The notes under the pieces were generated by a model, which was not told where the DNA came from, searched no databases, and saw only the letters and a list, made by a program, of their open reading frames with translations. The position numbers were made by a program, and so were the translations under genes. Positions 1 to 5,073 of a DNA stretch of 44,628 bases are shown here, in pieces. Every line of letters begins with the position of its first letter. Positions within the stretch are counted from its first letter, which is position 1. Source of the stretch: Candidatus Eiseniibacteriota bacterium (GTDB taxonomy: Bacteria; Orphanbacterota; Orphanbacteria; Orphanbacterales; Orphanbacteraceae); contig JBDROZ010000019.1 of NCBI GenBank assembly GCA_043809585.1, forward strand, positions 1 through 44,628, given 5' to 3'.

Positions 1-135
1 ATCTCAGGGCTGGCCTCGCGTCGATCCTGCCGGTCGGAGCTTCGCAGAGGCGAGAATCAAACGACCAGGCTACGCACGTAGACTCCTTCGTCGAACCGTT
101 CTCGGACGCGGGTTCGATTCCCGCCGCCTCCACCA
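1..135 (+). ncRNA. ssrA: tmRNA, 3' part (5' part lies outside the window)
   Basis: Ends in the tRNA-like T-arm/acceptor GGACGCGGGTTCGATTCCCGCCGCCTCCACCA, preceded by CTACGCACGTAGA as seen in tmRNA 3' regions; no D-arm/anticodon arm of a tRNA upstream. Confidence 0.88.
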
Positions 136-143
136 GCCTTCGC

Positions 144-395
144 CAAGGCTTCGGCTGGCAAGCCAGCATCGCAAGGGGAAGGACTCGGCCCCGAAGCCGA
201 GGCGAAGGCTGTCCGCCGAAGCTCTCCGAAGGAGAGCGAAGGCAGACTCCCCGACCACGGGTCCGTCCCGCCTCCGAACAAGGCTTCGGCTGGCAAGCCA
301 GCATCGCAAGGGGAAGGACTCGGCCCCGAAGCCGAGGCGAAGGCTGTCCGCCGAAGCTCTCCGAAGGAGAGCGAAGGCGGACTCCCCGACCACGG
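144..395. repeat. Two copies of a 117-bp palindromic REP-like unit (144-260, 279-395; period 135)
   Basis: Copies differ at one base (GGCAGACT vs GGCGGACT). Internal hairpins CTCGGC-CCCGAA-GCCGAG (184-201, 319-336) and GCTCTCC-GAA-GGAGAGC (221-237, 356-372). Confidence 0.92.
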
Positions 396-441
396 CATCT
401 CCCACTATCCGAACAGCCATCTCTTTCCGGAATCATCTATC

Positions 442-684
442 ATGAGATTTGTATACCTGATCCAGAGCATTCCGTACCCCGATCGGCGTTACATCGGCCT
501 GACGTCCGACCTTCGAAAACGCCTACAGGCTCACGACAGAGGGTGTTCACCGCACACATCGAGATTCCGTCCGTGGAAACTGATAGCCTACATAGCCTTC
601 GAGAGGGACGACAAGGCTGCAAATTTCGAGCGCTATCTGAAATCCGGATCGGGCCGGGCTTTCGCAAGACGGCGGATTTGGTAA
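442..684 (+). CDS. Small stand-alone GIY-YIG nuclease family protein (80 aa)
   Basis: FVYLIQS...YIGLTSDLRKRLQAH...HTSRFRPWKL...AANFERYLKSGSGR contains the GIY-YIG motifs, the conserved Arg/His and the catalytic Glu. Confidence 0.9.
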   Translation: MRFVYLIQSIPYPDRRYIGLTSDLRKRLQAHDRGCSPHTSRFRPWKLIAYIAFERDDKAANFERYLKSGSGRAFARRRIW

Positions 685-692
685 GGGCCTCT

Positions 693-1093
693 GCAATTCC
701 GGCAATTCCGGGGACGCCGTGCTTGATTCCGCCCCGCCTCTCTTCGGCCTGCCACAGGACCCCATACATCATGTCTTCGCGTTTCGATCCGTGGAGCAGC
801 GCCCGAGCCCATCTTCTCCGCAAGGACGATTCCCTCGTACTGGTGCAGCCCCTGCTCGAGATGACTCCGGATGGGAAGGCGTTTCTCGAGGATCCCCTCA
901 CCCACTGCGACATGGAAAGAATCCGGATCCATCAGCGCACGGGCAGACCACTGGGCGACATGAGTTTCATCCTTCCGCTCGAATCGCATCTCCATCGCGT
1001 ACTTCGGAAAGGAAAACCCGGCCCGAAACCACGAGAAGAGCCGAAATAAGTATGGCGTCCCCGGAACTCTCGTCCCCGGAACTCCCCGGAACT
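693..1093. mobile_element. Inverted-repeat-bounded, internally deleted RAYT (REP-associated tyrosine transposase) element
   Basis: Left AATTCCGGGGACGCCGTGCTTGATT (704-728) is an imperfect inverse of right AAATAAGTATGGCGTCCCCGGAACT (1044-1068). Extra end units: GCAATTCCG x2 on the left, TCCCCGGAACT x3 on the right. Confidence 0.65.
789..1049 (+). pseudogene. C-terminal remnant of a RAYT / IS200-like Y1 transposase
   Basis: PWSSARAHL...DDSLVLVQPLL...IRIHQRTGRPLGDMSF...LE...KPGPK matches RAYT C-termini; the HuH and catalytic Tyr regions are absent. Confidence 0.7.
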
Positions 1094-1104
1094 CGCGCCG
1101 GCCG

Positions 1105-4100
1105 CTACCTCAAGAGAACCACGCGCCTCGACTCCTGCTGACTTCCCGCGTGGAGCGTAACGAAGTAGACGCCGGATGATACGGCCTTCCCATCATCGTC
1201 GAGCCCATCCCATTCGATGGAATGGACCCCTCCGGCCATCGCCGCTCCCTCGATCAGTCTCCGGATCACCTGTCCCTTCACATTGTGCACGAGCAGATTC
1301 ACCACGGCACGATCGGGCAGGTTCAACCGGATCTCGGTCGAAGGATTGAACGGATTCGGGACGTTCGGAGAGAGGTACATCCTCACCGGCAACGGTTCGA
1401 ACGCGGGGACGCTCGTCGCCGTGGTTCCCGAGGCGTACAGGAGACTCCCTGAGGTCGCGTCCCGGTAGCTCACGTGGGGATCGCCGTTCGCATCGAGGCG
1501 AAGGGAGCTGTACCGGCCGACATCGTTGGCCGAGCTGTCCGCCGCCTGAATGTGCCATGTTCCTCCGATCCGGCGGGCATATTTGAGATTCCCGAGAGTG
1601 TTGTCGGCGTAGGTGACGTGGGGGTTTCCGCTCGAGTCGAGCTCGAGGGATGTGTCCCGTCCGTCGTTCGAGGAGCCCCCGTCGGCGATCTCGAGATGCC
1701 ACGAGCCGCCCGACTTGTAGGCATACTTCAGATCCTGGTTCGTCTCCCCGCGATAGCTGATGCAGGGATCGCCCGAAGCGCCCACCTCGATCGAACTGTG
1801 GGAACCGACGTTTCCGGATTCGTCCACGACCTCGATGATCCACGTAACGCCGTCCCTCTTCGCATACTTGAGATTGTCCCCGGTGGCGTCGTAGTAGCTG
1901 AAATGCTCGGTGCCGTCACCTTGTAAAGCGATGGACGGCCACGTACCGACATCGGCTCCCGTATCGACCACCTCGATCGACCAAACGCCTTCTACCTTCG
2001 TGGCGAGCATGAGTGAGCCCGCTCCCCCACTCCCTCGATAGTACGCAATATGAGGAGTATCAGCCGAATCAAGCGCGATCGACGTATAGAAGCCGGTGTT
2101 GGGCGCCGTGTCCACGACCTCGACCTGCCAGACTCCCGACTCGAGGCGGGCGTACTTCAGGTAGTAATTCGACTCATCGGTGTAGCTGATGTGCGGGTCG
2201 TCCTGGGCATCGAGGGCGAGGGAATTCCAGCCCCCGACCGTCCCCGTGGAATCGACTTTGGTGTGGCTCCAGCTCCTCCCGGACTTGACCGCATACCGGA
2301 GATCGCCGTTCGTCTCGTCGTAGTAACTGATGTGGGGCCTCGTTTGGGAATCGAGATCGAGCGAAGTGTAAGGGCCTACATCACCCGATCCGTCCACGAT
2401 CTCGATGGTAAAGACGATCTCCGACGAACCGGGATCGTACGGCACGATCCGGAAGTCGGCGTCCGACTCGTCGGAGCCTTCGTTCAACTCCGCGTCGCTG
2501 CAGACCACCCGGATCCGGCAGTCAGGCTCGTCGATGTCCGGGACGGTCCACACGTAGCTCGTCTCCGCGGCGAGCGATGCCAGGGTGTCCGGGTAGCTCG
2601 CCCCGCCGTCGATCGAGAGCAGCACGTAGGTCGCCGTGACGCCCACGTCGTCGGTCGACGTCCAGAGGACCGTGTAGTCGGTCAGTCCGTCGATCTCTTC
2701 CCCGCCGTTGGGGGCGATCATGTTGACATCCGGCCCGTCCCCTTGGTACTCGCACTCGTCGGGGATCCCGTTGTCGTTCAGATCGAGGGAAGTGGTGCTG
2801 TCGATGTCCTCGTCGTCGGGTATGCCGTTGCCGTTGCAATCGAAGCGGAGGGAGCTGAGGTACTCGAGCAACTCCAAGGTGTAACCGTCGACAGAATCCG
2901 GGAATTCCGGAGGTGGGAAAGTGTCCGCCATCGCCTTGCTTCGCGGGGCGGGCGCAGGTAGATAGAACAGGTTGGCCCAGTCATCATACCCGTTGAGATA
3001 CTCCCCCGGAGTAGGATTCTGTCTATTGTCGACGAAGTTCGCGTCCGCCTGTACGGTGCCGAACCAGAACAGGTTGCGATTCCAGTCTACCGGAGAGGCC
3101 ATGTTTACGATTTGAGGACCGGTTCCTCCGGGCGGAGGTCCTACAGGCACCCAGCGGAGTAGGAAAGCCGGATCCGCCGAAATACTGAAGAGCTCGTTGA
3201 GCTGCGCTTCATCCAAGCCCGGCATGGCTGCCCGCGAATAGTCGAGTTTCCAGCTCTGCCTGAATAGCCACAGGGGTAGGGCGCCGGTTCCCGCCAGCCG
3301 TACTCGGTTCGGAGCTGTCCAGGTGTAGTTCATGACGCTGAAGTAGTTCGGCTTGTGGTTTACATTCCACGATCCGATATCAGGTCCTCCACCGTGATCG
3401 AGCCCGAGCGAATGTCCTAATTCGTGCATGAACGTGGCTGCATATTCGTCTCTGGAAGTGCCGACCCAAAGTCCCAATGTCACTGCAAAGTGTTTTGCGC
3501 GAATCCCGGCGATACCGCTGTCATCGCGCAGGACTGGTGGACTTCCCGTGTCGGCGAGAGCGTTGGCGTAGATGCAGTACCGGTAGGCTTTCCATTTGGC
3601 CAGGCGGACCTGCGGTTTTGTCAGCTCGTTGGCGGTTCCGAAGTACTGATTCATCACTGCTTGGAACTTCTGATTGACGTTCCCTCCCACTCCTACTGTC
3701 CACGGAGAGTCGAATGGAACGTTCGTGTGATCCACATGGGGGTCTACGATGATGCCGTCTACCAATCCTGGAATGTGGAGTTCAATGCCGTCCTCCCCAT
3801 CCCCCCCGGGTGGATCGTTAGGGACGGGTGAATCATGAAAGGCATCGACCACGTCTTGGAGGGCGTCCTGGAGGACTGCCGGAGCAAGACCTACCATTGC
3901 ATCGATCTCGACGTAAATGTCCTTGTGCTTCGGGTTAGCATTATGCAGCTTGTAGTTTTGGATCTGGGTCTTTACGGGGATGCCGTTCTTCTCCCAGGTA
4001 TCAGGCAGTCCATCCCCGTCTTTGTCCCCGCACGATTTGTCGAACGTCGCGTCCATCAAGATGTTCACCGAGGCGAGGGCATCGGAAATAGCCTGCGGTG

Positions 4101-4692
4101 GGCAGTACTGGGTGCCCGAGTTTCCGAAGTAGACGCTTCGAACCGGCCGACCGATAAGGGTGTCCGGGCACGCTGACGACGTATCGATGGCCACGTTGTC
4201 CTCGCTCACGAGGGAGGGAAGCGTGCCGCCGTCCCATTTGGCGATAATGGCGACGCGCGACGATGGGCCGGAGCAGCCAAGGCCCGAGAGGAAATTCCAT
4301 CCTTCGACCGGATCGATTCCCGAGAGGCTTCCGAGCGAGGTTCCCACCTTGCATCCGGCACTATCCACCTCGTAAAGATCGTAGGACATTGTGAACCCGT
4401 AGGAAGGCTGGACCGACCTCCAGTACCACCAGAATCCGGTGTTGCAGGTGTTCGTGTCAGGAAGATCGAAGATCACCCCGACCTCATCGTCTTGGGCCCA
4501 GCCGGACCATGTCAATACTTGATCTGAACAGAGGTTGTAGTAGACGATCGAGCAGGTCCCCGTAGCCGCGCCGTATCTTTCATGTCGCGAAATCTCTTCA
4601 TGGAGGGGCTGGCGTTCCAGATTCGCCAGATCTCCCCACGCGCCTGCGACCAGTGCTGCGATGAGCAAGAGTACAAGAGTAAGGTTTCTCAC
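1105..4692 (-). CDS. Secreted multidomain zinc metalloprotease (metzincin) with Ca-binding loops, propeller-like repeats and a FlgD-Ig/T9SS-like C-terminal domain
   Basis: GTG start at 4692 after AAGGAGG; signal peptide; DKDGDGLPD; HELGHSLGLDH plus Met-turn SVMNY; about seven SL-LD-xxx-PHISY repeats; C-terminal PNPFNPSTEI...WDG...SGVYF. Confidence 0.85.
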   Translation of the reverse strand: MRNLTLVLLLIAALVAGAWGDLANLERQPLHEEISRHERYGAATGTCSIVYYNLCSDQVLTWSGWAQDDEVGVIFDLPDTNTCNTGFWWYWRSVQPSYGFTMSYDLYEVDSAGCKVGTSLGSLSGIDPVEGWNFLSGLGCSGPSSRVAIIAKWDGGTLPSLVSEDNVAIDTSSACPDTLIGRPVRSVYFGNSGTQYCPPQAISDALASVNILMDATFDKSCGDKDGDGLPDTWEKNGIPVKTQIQNYKLHNANPKHKDIYVEIDAMVGLAPAVLQDALQDVVDAFHDSPVPNDPPGGDGEDGIELHIPGLVDGIIVDPHVDHTNVPFDSPWTVGVGGNVNQKFQAVMNQYFGTANELTKPQVRLAKWKAYRYCIYANALADTGSPPVLRDDSGIAGIRAKHFAVTLGLWVGTSRDEYAATFMHELGHSLGLDHGGGPDIGSWNVNHKPNYFSVMNYTWTAPNRVRLAGTGALPLWLFRQSWKLDYSRAAMPGLDEAQLNELFSISADPAFLLRWVPVGPPPGGTGPQIVNMASPVDWNRNLFWFGTVQADANFVDNRQNPTPGEYLNGYDDWANLFYLPAPAPRSKAMADTFPPPEFPDSVDGYTLELLEYLSSLRFDCNGNGIPDDEDIDSTTSLDLNDNGIPDECEYQGDGPDVNMIAPNGGEEIDGLTDYTVLWTSTDDVGVTATYVLLSIDGGASYPDTLASLAAETSYVWTVPDIDEPDCRIRVVCSDAELNEGSDESDADFRIVPYDPGSSEIVFTIEIVDGSGDVGPYTSLDLDSQTRPHISYYDETNGDLRYAVKSGRSWSHTKVDSTGTVGGWNSLALDAQDDPHISYTDESNYYLKYARLESGVWQVEVVDTAPNTGFYTSIALDSADTPHIAYYRGSGGAGSLMLATKVEGVWSIEVVDTGADVGTWPSIALQGDGTEHFSYYDATGDNLKYAKRDGVTWIIEVVDESGNVGSHSSIEVGASGDPCISYRGETNQDLKYAYKSGGSWHLEIADGGSSNDGRDTSLELDSSGNPHVTYADNTLGNLKYARRIGGTWHIQAADSSANDVGRYSSLRLDANGDPHVSYRDATSGSLLYASGTTATSVPAFEPLPVRMYLSPNVPNPFNPSTEIRLNLPDRAVVNLLVHNVKGQVIRRLIEGAAMAGGVHSIEWDGLDDDGKAVSSGVYFVTLHAGSQQESRRVVLLR

Positions 4693-5049
4693 AATGCCCT
4701 CCTTGTCAACTTGCCTCCAGGCGTTTCTGCCCATCTCTGCCGGCGATGGCGCCGTGCCAGACGGCAGTGAGCCCTCTGCGGATACCGGCTATCGGGCGTG
4801 GAAGTTCAGACGAGCGTGTGGATTCGGCGTCAAACGCCCGATTTCGAATGTTCAAGAGAAGCAGTGAGGGCCTTCACGGTGTGCTTTGGCATTCATGGTT
4901 CAATGGTCCGGCTGCCGAGTATACATGCTCCAGATACCCTTGTCCAGGTTCCGGTGTCCCGGCCATCCGGAGCGGATTCCGGCGACACGCCTCACACCCG
5001 AACCGGATCCGGTATCCGGTGCATCCCCCGCGCATGGAGCGGTTTGCGA

Positions 5050-5073
5050 TTCGACTCCCGCCGCCTCCACCAG
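5050..5073 (+). repeat. att-like second copy of the tmRNA 3' end
   Basis: TTCGACTCCCGCCGCCTCCACCAG matches 113-136 with one mismatch. Confidence 0.85.

Follow-up and report, generated by a model that had tools for sequence, protein, structure and literature searches.

Why should the 3' end of a transfer-messenger RNA (tmRNA) gene be followed directly by tandemly repeated hairpins and then by a nuclease gene that encodes only 80 amino acids (aa)? This arrangement is located at the beginning of a 44,628-nucleotide (nt) stretch of DNA from a Candidatus Eiseniibacteriota bacterium, hereafter called the window, which is the start of contig C19 in its own genome (G000). The original prediction, made from the letters of the DNA, was that the two parts form a nuclease system with REP-like hairpins located where tRNA and tmRNA genes end. 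The feature is real and not a product of chance: an inverted pair of hairpins begins at the CCA of tRNA and tmRNA genes, is linked to the nuclease gene, recurs at tRNA ends without the open reading frame (ORF), and co-occurs with the nuclease across genomes. On balance, we consider it probable, if by no means certain, that the window contains one member of a widespread two-part module, in which an Ssn-like nuclease of 80 aa would recognise or place a hairpin element of approximately 90 nt at tRNA ends.

The link between the gene and tRNA ends was analyzed in a scan of one genome per species, which gave 595 confirmed loci out of 602 pattern matches. The best 80 loci were analyzed and span at least eight phylum-level groups. 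ARAGORN identified a tRNA (50 loci) or tmRNA (14 loci) upstream on the same strand in 64 of the 80 loci, ending 82–529 nt ahead of the start codon; this distance was at most 300 nt in 60 loci. The tRNAs have 11 amino-acid identities, with Ser in 15 loci, Ala and Gln in seven each, Val in six, Leu in five, Pro in four, Arg in two, and Glu, Gly, Cys and Asn in one each. Bacterial genomes have approximately 50 tRNA- and tmRNA-type genes among approximately 4,000 genes, and adjacency by chance is therefore expected in about 1–2% of cases. The enrichment of tRNA and tmRNA genes beside homologues that the original prediction implied is evident from these counts. Among the 16 loci without a called tRNA, three (L045, L085 and L093) show a T-arm-like hairpin 116–234 nt upstream, and another two are interrupted by a contig end within about 250 nt; a fourth match to the T-arm pattern, in L088, was not counted. 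Distant small GIY-YIG homologues with 30–41% identity, from other phyla (L107–L116, in genomes G011, G013, G016 and G019), have a same-strand tRNA beside them in seven of ten loci, some of them being located upstream of the tRNA instead of downstream.

The spacers between the tRNA or tmRNA and the nuclease gene share one architecture, which begins at the CCA and has a constant orientation relative to the tRNA. The first hairpin (H1) consists of a variable arm that includes the CCA, the motif TTCGC, a small inner hairpin, the motif GCTTC and the complementary arm. It is followed by the conserved motif TGGCA(A/G)GCC, a variable stretch and a segment (X'') complementary to the CCA-proximal arm. 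The second hairpin (H2) is composed of a TG(C/T)CC stem, GAAGC, a loop, GCGAA and the other side of the stem, and in most loci it ends 3–15 nt before the start codon. H1 on the bottom strand is the H2 motif on the top strand, so that the element consists of a single hairpin type present twice in inverted orientation. With a threshold of E ≤ 1e-3, a covariance model (R1) built from 25 loci other than the window matched 68 of the 80, including the 25 training rows. The motifs GCCTTCGC…GCTTCGG and CCGAAGC…GCGAAGG, which the original prediction had expected near homologues, are thus present there. Tandem arrays of the element were also identified elsewhere with R1, with four copies in L094 and two each in L040, L033, L086 and L026.

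Base pairing in H1 and H2 was compared across 27 loci. In total, 94.9% of the alignment cells were paired, as compared to 33–44% when the partners were slid by 1–3 columns. Compensatory changes, on both sides of the pair, were found in 13 of 20 pairs, and 87 cells were changed on both sides as compared to 28.8 in shuffled data, with none of 500 shuffles reaching the observed number. G-U cells were nearly absent (about 3 of 527). Since the same motif is present on both strands and wobble pairs are so rare, we argue that selection acts on DNA hairpins. The covariation pattern points to hairpins in DNA, with an additional role in RNA being possible. In many loci (among L021–L098), the 3' arm of H2 reads GGAGG 3–9 nt before the ATG; in the window, H2 is located 59 nt from the ATG, which is preceded by no GGAGG-type motif.

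In the window itself, the Tandem Repeats Finder (TRF) reported a single array with a period of 135, 1.9 copies, 99% matches and a score of 497 (Table 1). Direct comparison of 144–260 with 279–395 showed 117 nt with a single difference at 244 (A/G), in full agreement with the repeat of 117 bp, period of 135 bp and one mismatch that had been described before. Past the 117-nt units, 9 of the next 12 positions differ. The repeat had been thought to start immediately after the CCA; the conserved element does start at the CCA, but the exact repeat starts at 144 and not at 136. Likewise, the hairpin GCCTT-CGCC-AAGGC proposed at 136–149 can form, but the hairpin conserved across loci pairs 133–138 with 153–158 (CCAGCC/GGCTGG). 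The complementary repeated motifs were recovered as GCGAAGGC in four copies (202, 236, 337 and 371) and GCCTTCGC in one copy (136) within the first 700 nt. The 21-nt arms 134–154 and 191–211 are 90% complementary, and both strands of 128–262 fold better than 200 of 200 shuffled sequences (z −4.65 and −3.96). R1 matched two copies of the element, the second of which lacks the 5' arm of H1. The 135-nt repeat of the window is two tandem copies of the conserved element of approximately 90 nt and no local debris. A search of window positions 1–3000 against Rfam 15 at E ≤ 1 returned the tmRNA plus three weak sub-threshold rows, which were taken as chance matches.

The gene downstream is intact, as had been predicted, and starts 46 nt past the repeat. 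Its product matches PF01541 over residues 3–70 with 49.9 bits (cut-off 22.6; E 4e-13) and carries the residues Y5, Y17, R27, H31 and E63. An alignment of 26 family members contains 25 invariant columns, including Y5, Y17, H31 and E63, and R27 is nearly invariant. The catalytic role of the Tyr/Tyr/Glu residues rests on the mutants Y6A, Y17A and E64A of the Ssn nuclease SsnA (PMC11893778). A word-indexed search gave 1,209 candidates, of which 1,208 are relatives at E ≤ 1e-3. The best 120 relatives are 60–70% identical to the window protein, 79–113 aa long and mostly located on short contigs, and the named ones among them belong to Desulfuromonadales, Puniceicoccales and Thermodesulfobacteriota. 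An exhaustive search of 1.84 billion cluster representatives identified 1,125 at E ≤ 1e-10 and 4,264 at E ≤ 1e-3; the best 150 are all 68–172 aa long with one matched stretch. The nearest solved structures in a profile search are the UPF0213 protein BH0048 (1zg2, E 1.5e-6, 31 bits) and SLX1 (E 4e-6 to 1e-4). No DNA-binding domain was found in the 80-aa protein, no NCBIfam family matched the ORF, and the Y1 HUH family PF01797 did not match it. A tblastn search against 72,556 plasmids gave no match.

The element also occurs away from the nuclease gene. The pattern CCGAAGC-N(2-12)-GCGAAGG was found on both strands of five carrier genomes in 15, 37, 21, 6 and 18 copies, as compared to 4, 8, 3, 2 and 11 copies of the reversed control, respectively. 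R1 identified 4–11 element loci in four other carrier genomes, after matches on the two strands had been merged by hand. Four of 12 hand-picked pattern sites are located immediately 3' of a tRNA (Leu, Leu, Thr and Met) and show the full architecture; one of these, L146, is placed between the tRNA and a canonical terminator. Twenty R1 matches away from the gene were hand-picked from six genomes, and 15 of them directly adjoin a tRNA 3' end on the same strand. The other five comprise one copy located 95 nt from a tRNA, one upstream of tRNA-SeC and three without a tRNA. In G060, nine element loci were found together with one nuclease gene. Copies within one genome have diverged in sequence, with the structure being kept by compensatory change.

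When G000 was scanned for the hairpin motif flanked by complementary sequence, 14 sites were obtained, as compared to 0–3 in five shuffled genomes, and three of the 14 are those of the window. Six others are solo hairpins of 27 nt with a short loop and a stem that is the same as, or nearly identical to, that of H2 in the window (TCCGCC/GGCGGA in four of them). These six (L140–L145) adjoin a dispersed repeat of approximately 175 nt, for example at C18:27365-27540, and no Rfam match was obtained for their regions at E ≤ 0.01. The dispersed repeat family has at least 90 copies in G000, with 72–91% identity, and on the opposite strand the solo hairpins are followed by T-arm-like sequence. Short BLAST matches of 136–420 in G000, the best of which is located in DNA encoding an Ala/Ser-rich linker on contig C113, were judged to be due to chance. 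The idea of a nuclease with REP-like hairpins at tRNA and tmRNA ends is thus a fair reading of the association with homologues and of the ORF-less copies at tRNA ends, but in G000 it applies to this locus and six short solo hairpins only. The original prediction as a whole is partly supported.

We further compared 41 genomes, namely G000 and 40 others, most of which belong to the same genus and family. None of the eight same-family genomes has the nuclease, nor does the same-class genome, and one close relative was identified among the 41 genomes (G031, 51% identity). R1 matched G000, G031 (directly upstream of its nuclease gene), G016 and G014, and none of the nine same-family or same-class genomes. 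In an evenly drawn alphaproteobacterial sample, the nuclease was identified in 23 of 151 genomes (one copy in 22 of them and two copies in one) and the element in 26 of 150. The element is present in 19 of the 23 nuclease genomes, and seven sampled genomes carry the element without a detected nuclease; without the unpublished genome G084, 18 of 22 genomes have both and the element-only number is again seven.

The closest known system is that of the Ssn nucleases and their NTS repeats, of which the window family looks like a sister lineage. As described in the sections of Chenal et al. (2025, Nat Commun, PMC11893778) used here, Ssn proteins have a single GIY-YIG domain (94 aa in N. meningitidis), bind the NTS/SRM hairpin repeat only as single-stranded DNA and cut a few bases upstream of it. 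According to the same sections, Ssn genes are flanked by NTS/SRM repeats, and the authors themselves draw the analogy to RAYT/REP systems. The statement in the original prediction that no mechanism had been described for such a pairing is therefore out of date. The two families resemble each other in several respects: both proteins consist of one domain and are shorter than 100 aa, the catalytic spacing is Y5/Y17/E63 here and Y6/Y17/E64 in SsnA, the gene is flanked by oriented hairpin repeats with more copies elsewhere in the genome, and the hairpins have the design stem-GA(A)GC-loop-GCGA(A)-stem. The genome of Reyranella soli contains one member of the window family plus three other small GIY-YIG genes, which have hairpins of the GTCAT type at their flanks. 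The window protein is 30–37% identical to these three SRM-flanked Ssn-like proteins of R. soli.

There are also differences. The C-terminus is YLKSGSGRAF…W in the window protein, as compared to …KQLKGW.R.KK…NP.W.DL in the R. soli proteins. The copy numbers of the element range from units to about ten in the window family and are in the hundreds for Ssn repeats. The element is located at the CCA ends of tRNA and tmRNA genes, whereas the word "tRNA" is absent from the main text of PMC11893778 and no tRNA is located within 1.5 kilobases (kb) of the three Ssn-like genes of R. soli. The published SRM pattern (HGTCWY…) was not found in window positions 1–1200 and was found once in the 80 loci (ORF ± 500 nt) as compared to three times in shuffled sequences, although the GTCAT-type hairpins next to the Ssn-like genes of R. 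soli likewise escaped the expression used. A distinct but related hairpin motif stands where the SRM would be. The window family is the only small GIY-YIG family in three genomes, those of Geomonas paludis, Aquisalinus luteolus and Mesorhizobium neociceri. Chenal et al. used tblastn E < 1e-10 to N. meningitidis SsnA and a CDD score > 100 as criteria, and in the rows of their Supplementary Data 4 for these species, whose assemblies may differ from ours, the entries are NO/NO/NO/NO for G. paludis and NO/NO/YES/NO for the other two. The three species were thus scored without an SsnA homologue, and none with a cd10448 score > 100, a comparison that bears on the window family only indirectly. Membership in the Ssn family is doubtful because of this scoring, the failure to find the published SRM pattern beside the genes, the contrast within R. 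soli and the lack of tRNA in the paper.

With RAYT/REP-REPIN and IS200/IS605 systems, the window system has in common a single-copy enzyme gene beside its hairpins, non-autonomous copies of two inverted hairpins elsewhere, folding of both strands and features at the level of DNA. It differs from them in that the enzyme is of the GIY-YIG and not the Y1/HUH type, the position at the tRNA 3' end is fixed, the copies within a genome have diverged and the copy number is far lower (two tandem copies and six solo hairpins in G000, 4–11 loci in other genomes). The Y1-type fragment at 771–1049 is a separate remnant. UPF0213 and bacterial Slx1-like proteins are likewise minimal stand-alone domains and the best, albeit weak (31 bits), structural relatives, but no hairpin element or adjacency to tRNA genes is mentioned in the sections of Dunin-Horkawicz et al. 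(2006, PMC1564403) considered here. CGTC-tagged repeats are said, in the part of the 2013 study (PMC3733652) used here, to lack a dedicated transposase. No description of GIY-YIG genes or hairpin repeats at tRNA or tmRNA 3' ends was found in the literature outside subscription journals; the tRNA-end address of a nuclease/hairpin module is thus undescribed in the literature searched.

An alternative at the level of RNA, which we regard as unlikely rather than implausible, is that tRNA and mRNA are transcribed together and the element is a structured trailer or leader within this transcript. There, it would guide processing, for instance cleavage of the long helix next to the CCA, shield the 5' end of the released mRNA and mask the ribosome-binding site. 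The nuclease would then be an ordinary enzyme of homing type or with a housekeeping role, expressed from the tRNA promoter, and copies without the ORF would be trailer structures of tRNAs. The start at the CCA and the constant orientation to the tRNA agree with this explanation, as do the GGAGG often found just before the ATG, the structure kept by compensatory change in paralogous copies and the presence of the element in some genomes without the nuclease. No sigma-70-like promoter or intrinsic-terminator-like site was found in window positions 1–1200, so none is located between the tmRNA and the ORF, and the solo copy L146 would be transcribed because of its placement ahead of a terminator. 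However, folding in a single RNA strand leaves unexplained why H1 and H2 are one motif on opposite strands, and the near-absence of G-U cells, the lack of a matching Rfam family, the copies away from any tRNA and the patchy distribution that tracks the nuclease (19 of 23 carriers as compared to seven element-only genomes) also speak against it. The co-transcribed structured RNA suggested by the original prediction is possible but not favored, as the motif on both strands and the rarity of G-U fit DNA better.

It is improbable, in our view, that the nuclease is a free-standing homing endonuclease of the SegB/I-TevI kind. Such an enzyme would cleave tRNA genes as double-stranded DNA and be propagated through repair of the double-strand breaks, and the presence of the hairpins would be incidental. 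SegB and I-TevI have lengths of about 220–245 aa, contain a DNA-binding domain and cut double-stranded DNA. The window protein is a bare catalytic domain of 80 aa without such a DNA-binding domain and is associated with a conserved hairpin element, which also occurs without the gene; moreover, its nearest structures are minimal domains of the Slx1/UPF0213 type and not I-TevI. Consistent with homing are the patchy, mobile-looking distribution, the many tRNA hosts, the tRNA genes beside seven of the ten distant homologues and the GIY-YIG homing endonuclease gene segB, which is located in a tRNA gene cluster of phage T4 according to the section of PMC2330249 used here.

Table 1. Positions of features at the left end of the window
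Feature	Position	Strand	Basis or remark
tmRNA 3' part	1..135	+	Rfam RF00023; 5' part on contig C66
Element copy 1, double hairpin starting at CCA	130..249	+	R1 50.4 bits, E 4e-7 / 4.6e-8
Hairpin H1, CCAGCC-TTCGC-CAAG-GCTTC-GGCTGG	133..158	+	5' arm includes CCA; pairs covary across 27 loci
Direct repeat	144..395	+	TRF, direct comparison
Segment X'', inverted copy of 134-154, can pair with CCA-proximal segment	191..211	+	Repeat search; DNA fold uses the pairing
Hairpin H2 copy 1, GTCCGCC-GAAGC-TCTCCGAAGGAGA-GCGAA-GGCAGAC	211..247	+	Inverted-repeat search; outer and inner helices covary across loci
Element copy 2, without 5' arm of H1	264..384	+	R1 33 bits, E 1.9e-4 / 0.0016
Hairpin H2 copy 2, perfect stem GTCCGCC/GGCGGAC	346..382	+	Inverted-repeat search
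Stand-alone GIY-YIG nuclease gene, 80 aa	442..684	+	PF01541; starts 46 nt past repeat; single copy in genome
Possible decayed tmRNA T-arm/acceptor 3' end	712..740	+	28 nt past nuclease stop codon
92-aa ORF/fragment, C-terminal part of Y1 (IS200/RAYT-type) transposase-like protein	771..1049	+	Catalytic domain missing
Second tmRNA 3'-end copy, att-like direct repeat	5048..5072	+	Sequence search vs shuffles

The window opens inside the tmRNA gene, for which reason ARAGORN made no tmRNA call there; the part present ends in …CCACCA and matches RF00023 with 76.5 bits (E 2.8e-29). A complete tmRNA (192.7 bits) is located at C66:43772-44128, at the end of contig C66. The final 141 nt of C66 are identical to the opening 141 nt of C19, across the 3' end of the tmRNA, and because of this overlap we take the two contigs to adjoin. 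From its length, the overlap is read as a fork in the assembly graph; a third contig carrying the 141-nt tmRNA-end sequence was not found in G000. A Logan contig of run X1, the best holder with 0.38 of the words, spans 144–308 without a difference as well as 730–1028, with the ORF outside its coverage. The RNA run X2 covers the tmRNA part only.

The last 25 nt of the tmRNA (111–135) are repeated with two mismatches at 5048–5072 (two matches in the window, none in 100 shuffles), and 136–5047 is therefore bracketed like an island. This 4.9-kb segment contains the element, the nuclease gene, the fragment at 771–1049 and, on the minus strand, a gene for a 1,209-aa protein. No integrase was present among the ORFs identified in 136–5047, where no scan aimed at integrase families was made. 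The putative tmRNA end at 712–740 has 23 identities in 29 columns, a score equalled by 0.45–1.15% of 2,000 mononucleotide shuffles per scoring scheme, and is only suggestive of a decayed copy. The fragment at 771–1049 has no Pfam match of its own and is 49% identical (E 5e-19) to C51:15372-15626, which adjoins a PF01797 match at C51:15669-15995; both PF01797 genes of G000 are located on contigs other than that of the window. The fragment is flanked by inverted repeats at 706–732 and 1040–1066, with 27-nt arms that are 81% complementary. Just past it, CGTCCCCGGAACTC occurs three times head-to-tail at 1056–1094, with spacings of 15 and 10 nt. The 1,209-aa protein (1105–4734, minus strand) is encoded by the largest gene of the segment and has a C-terminal FlgD Ig-like domain (FlgD_ig, E 8e-10) and weak metallopeptidase-type matches around residues 425–449. 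The palindrome CCGGCGATCGCCGG is located directly after the tmRNA-end copy at 5048–5072.

The tmRNA flanks all differ among the nine relatives examined, several of which have ordinary terminator hairpins there, and the element is absent from all nine flanks. In the same-family relative G005 (C46, L121/L122), the 27 nt at the tmRNA 3' end recur without a mismatch 1.25 kb downstream of its tmRNA, marking another small insert at this site. Copies of 20 nt from the tRNA 3' end, with no or almost no mismatches, were also found 1,710 and 2,772 nt downstream of the nuclease in L042 and 1,378 nt downstream in L021, and in these two loci the module is likewise at the tRNA-proximal end of larger inserts. 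The location at tRNA and tmRNA 3' ends and the duplicated tmRNA end are features shared with islands of tyrosine integrases; the differences are the conserved unit of about 90 nt with a gene of 243 nt and the rarity of tRNA-end duplicates close to the gene (5 of 60 loci). We consider it very improbable that an integrase-type island carries the repeats and the nuclease merely by accident, as cargo at its tmRNA-proximal end, with the 135-nt repeat being an att-site or recombination scar: the copies at 5048–5072 and, more weakly, 712–740, those in G005, L021 and L042 and the variable flanks of the nine relatives would fit, but the element and gene recur with a conserved structure beside 11 tRNA types and tmRNA in many phyla and are therefore no local scar, and the cargo ORFs are the nuclease, the Y1 fragment and the 1,209-aa protein, described as secreted. 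Conservation across phyla contradicts this as the full explanation, and it survives as the history of the 4.9-kb segment.

We thus return to the two-part module of nuclease and tRNA-end element. By analogy with SsnA and NTS, the nuclease would bind the H1 and H2 hairpins in single-stranded DNA and nick nearby, the single-stranded state arising in replication, during heavy transcription of the tRNA or in incoming DNA. Through this activity, the element would be placed or maintained in the neutral 3' trailer of the tRNA, where an insert may do little harm because trimming of the tRNA removes it. One copy of the element would carry the gene, which would be expressed by read-through from the tRNA or tmRNA promoter. 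The window has two tandem copies of the element, at the tmRNA-proximal end of the 4.9-kb segment bracketed by tmRNA 3'-end repeats.

Besides the SRM result and the scoring in Supplementary Data 4, several observations weigh against this module. The cleavage, binding and mobility predicted for it are drawn by analogy with SsnA and NTS, and a pair of filled and empty sites or a regular target duplication was not found. Remnants of the tRNA 3' end past the ORF were identified in 5 of 60 loci, 26–124 nt after the stop codon (four of them reaching or exceeding the 99th percentile of mismatched pairings), and tRNA-end copies within 3 kb downstream in 4 of 58 loci, numbers that are too low for a target duplication to be defined. 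Neither BLAST with 136–420 nor R1 revealed another complete element in G000. The divergence of structure-keeping copies within a genome makes long-term selection likelier than recent spread and could mean a function for the host or at the level of RNA. Masking of the ribosome-binding site in RNA is possible, since the 3' arm of H2 reads GGAGG near the ATG. In G014, which has no detected nuclease, the element is located right after tRNA-Lys and tRNA-Leu, in addition to the seven alphaproteobacterial genomes with the element only. Finally, part of the co-occurrence is inevitable, given that one copy of the element accompanies the gene itself, and related genomes are not independent.

A bolder version of the same module, which we consider possible but doubtful, is that a hairpin-guided 80-aa nuclease for single-stranded DNA and REPIN-like inverted hairpins constitute a hitherto undescribed class of minimal mobile module, which homes to tRNA and tmRNA genes at their CCA ends. 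The junction of tRNA and element has a complementary segment inside the element, and this segment might then be a built-in guide that sets the site of cutting or insertion. If true, such a system would target tRNA genes under the guidance of a nucleic acid and be far smaller than the transposases known to date.

If the proposed link between nuclease and element holds, Ssn-type nucleases for single-stranded DNA would be extended to a second large lineage of at least 1,125 sequence clusters, which has its own hairpin code and a precise address, the CCA end of the tRNA or tmRNA gene. The structured insert that recurs in tRNA trailers of bacteria would be explained, small site-specific nucleases for single-stranded DNA would be added as a new set for tool-making, and a route for DNA to settle at tRNA genes would be revealed that depends on neither an integrase nor a transposase. 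If the hairpins act in RNA instead, a conserved structure of approximately 90 nt on many tRNA 3' ends in many phyla would represent a new component in the anatomy of tRNA genes.

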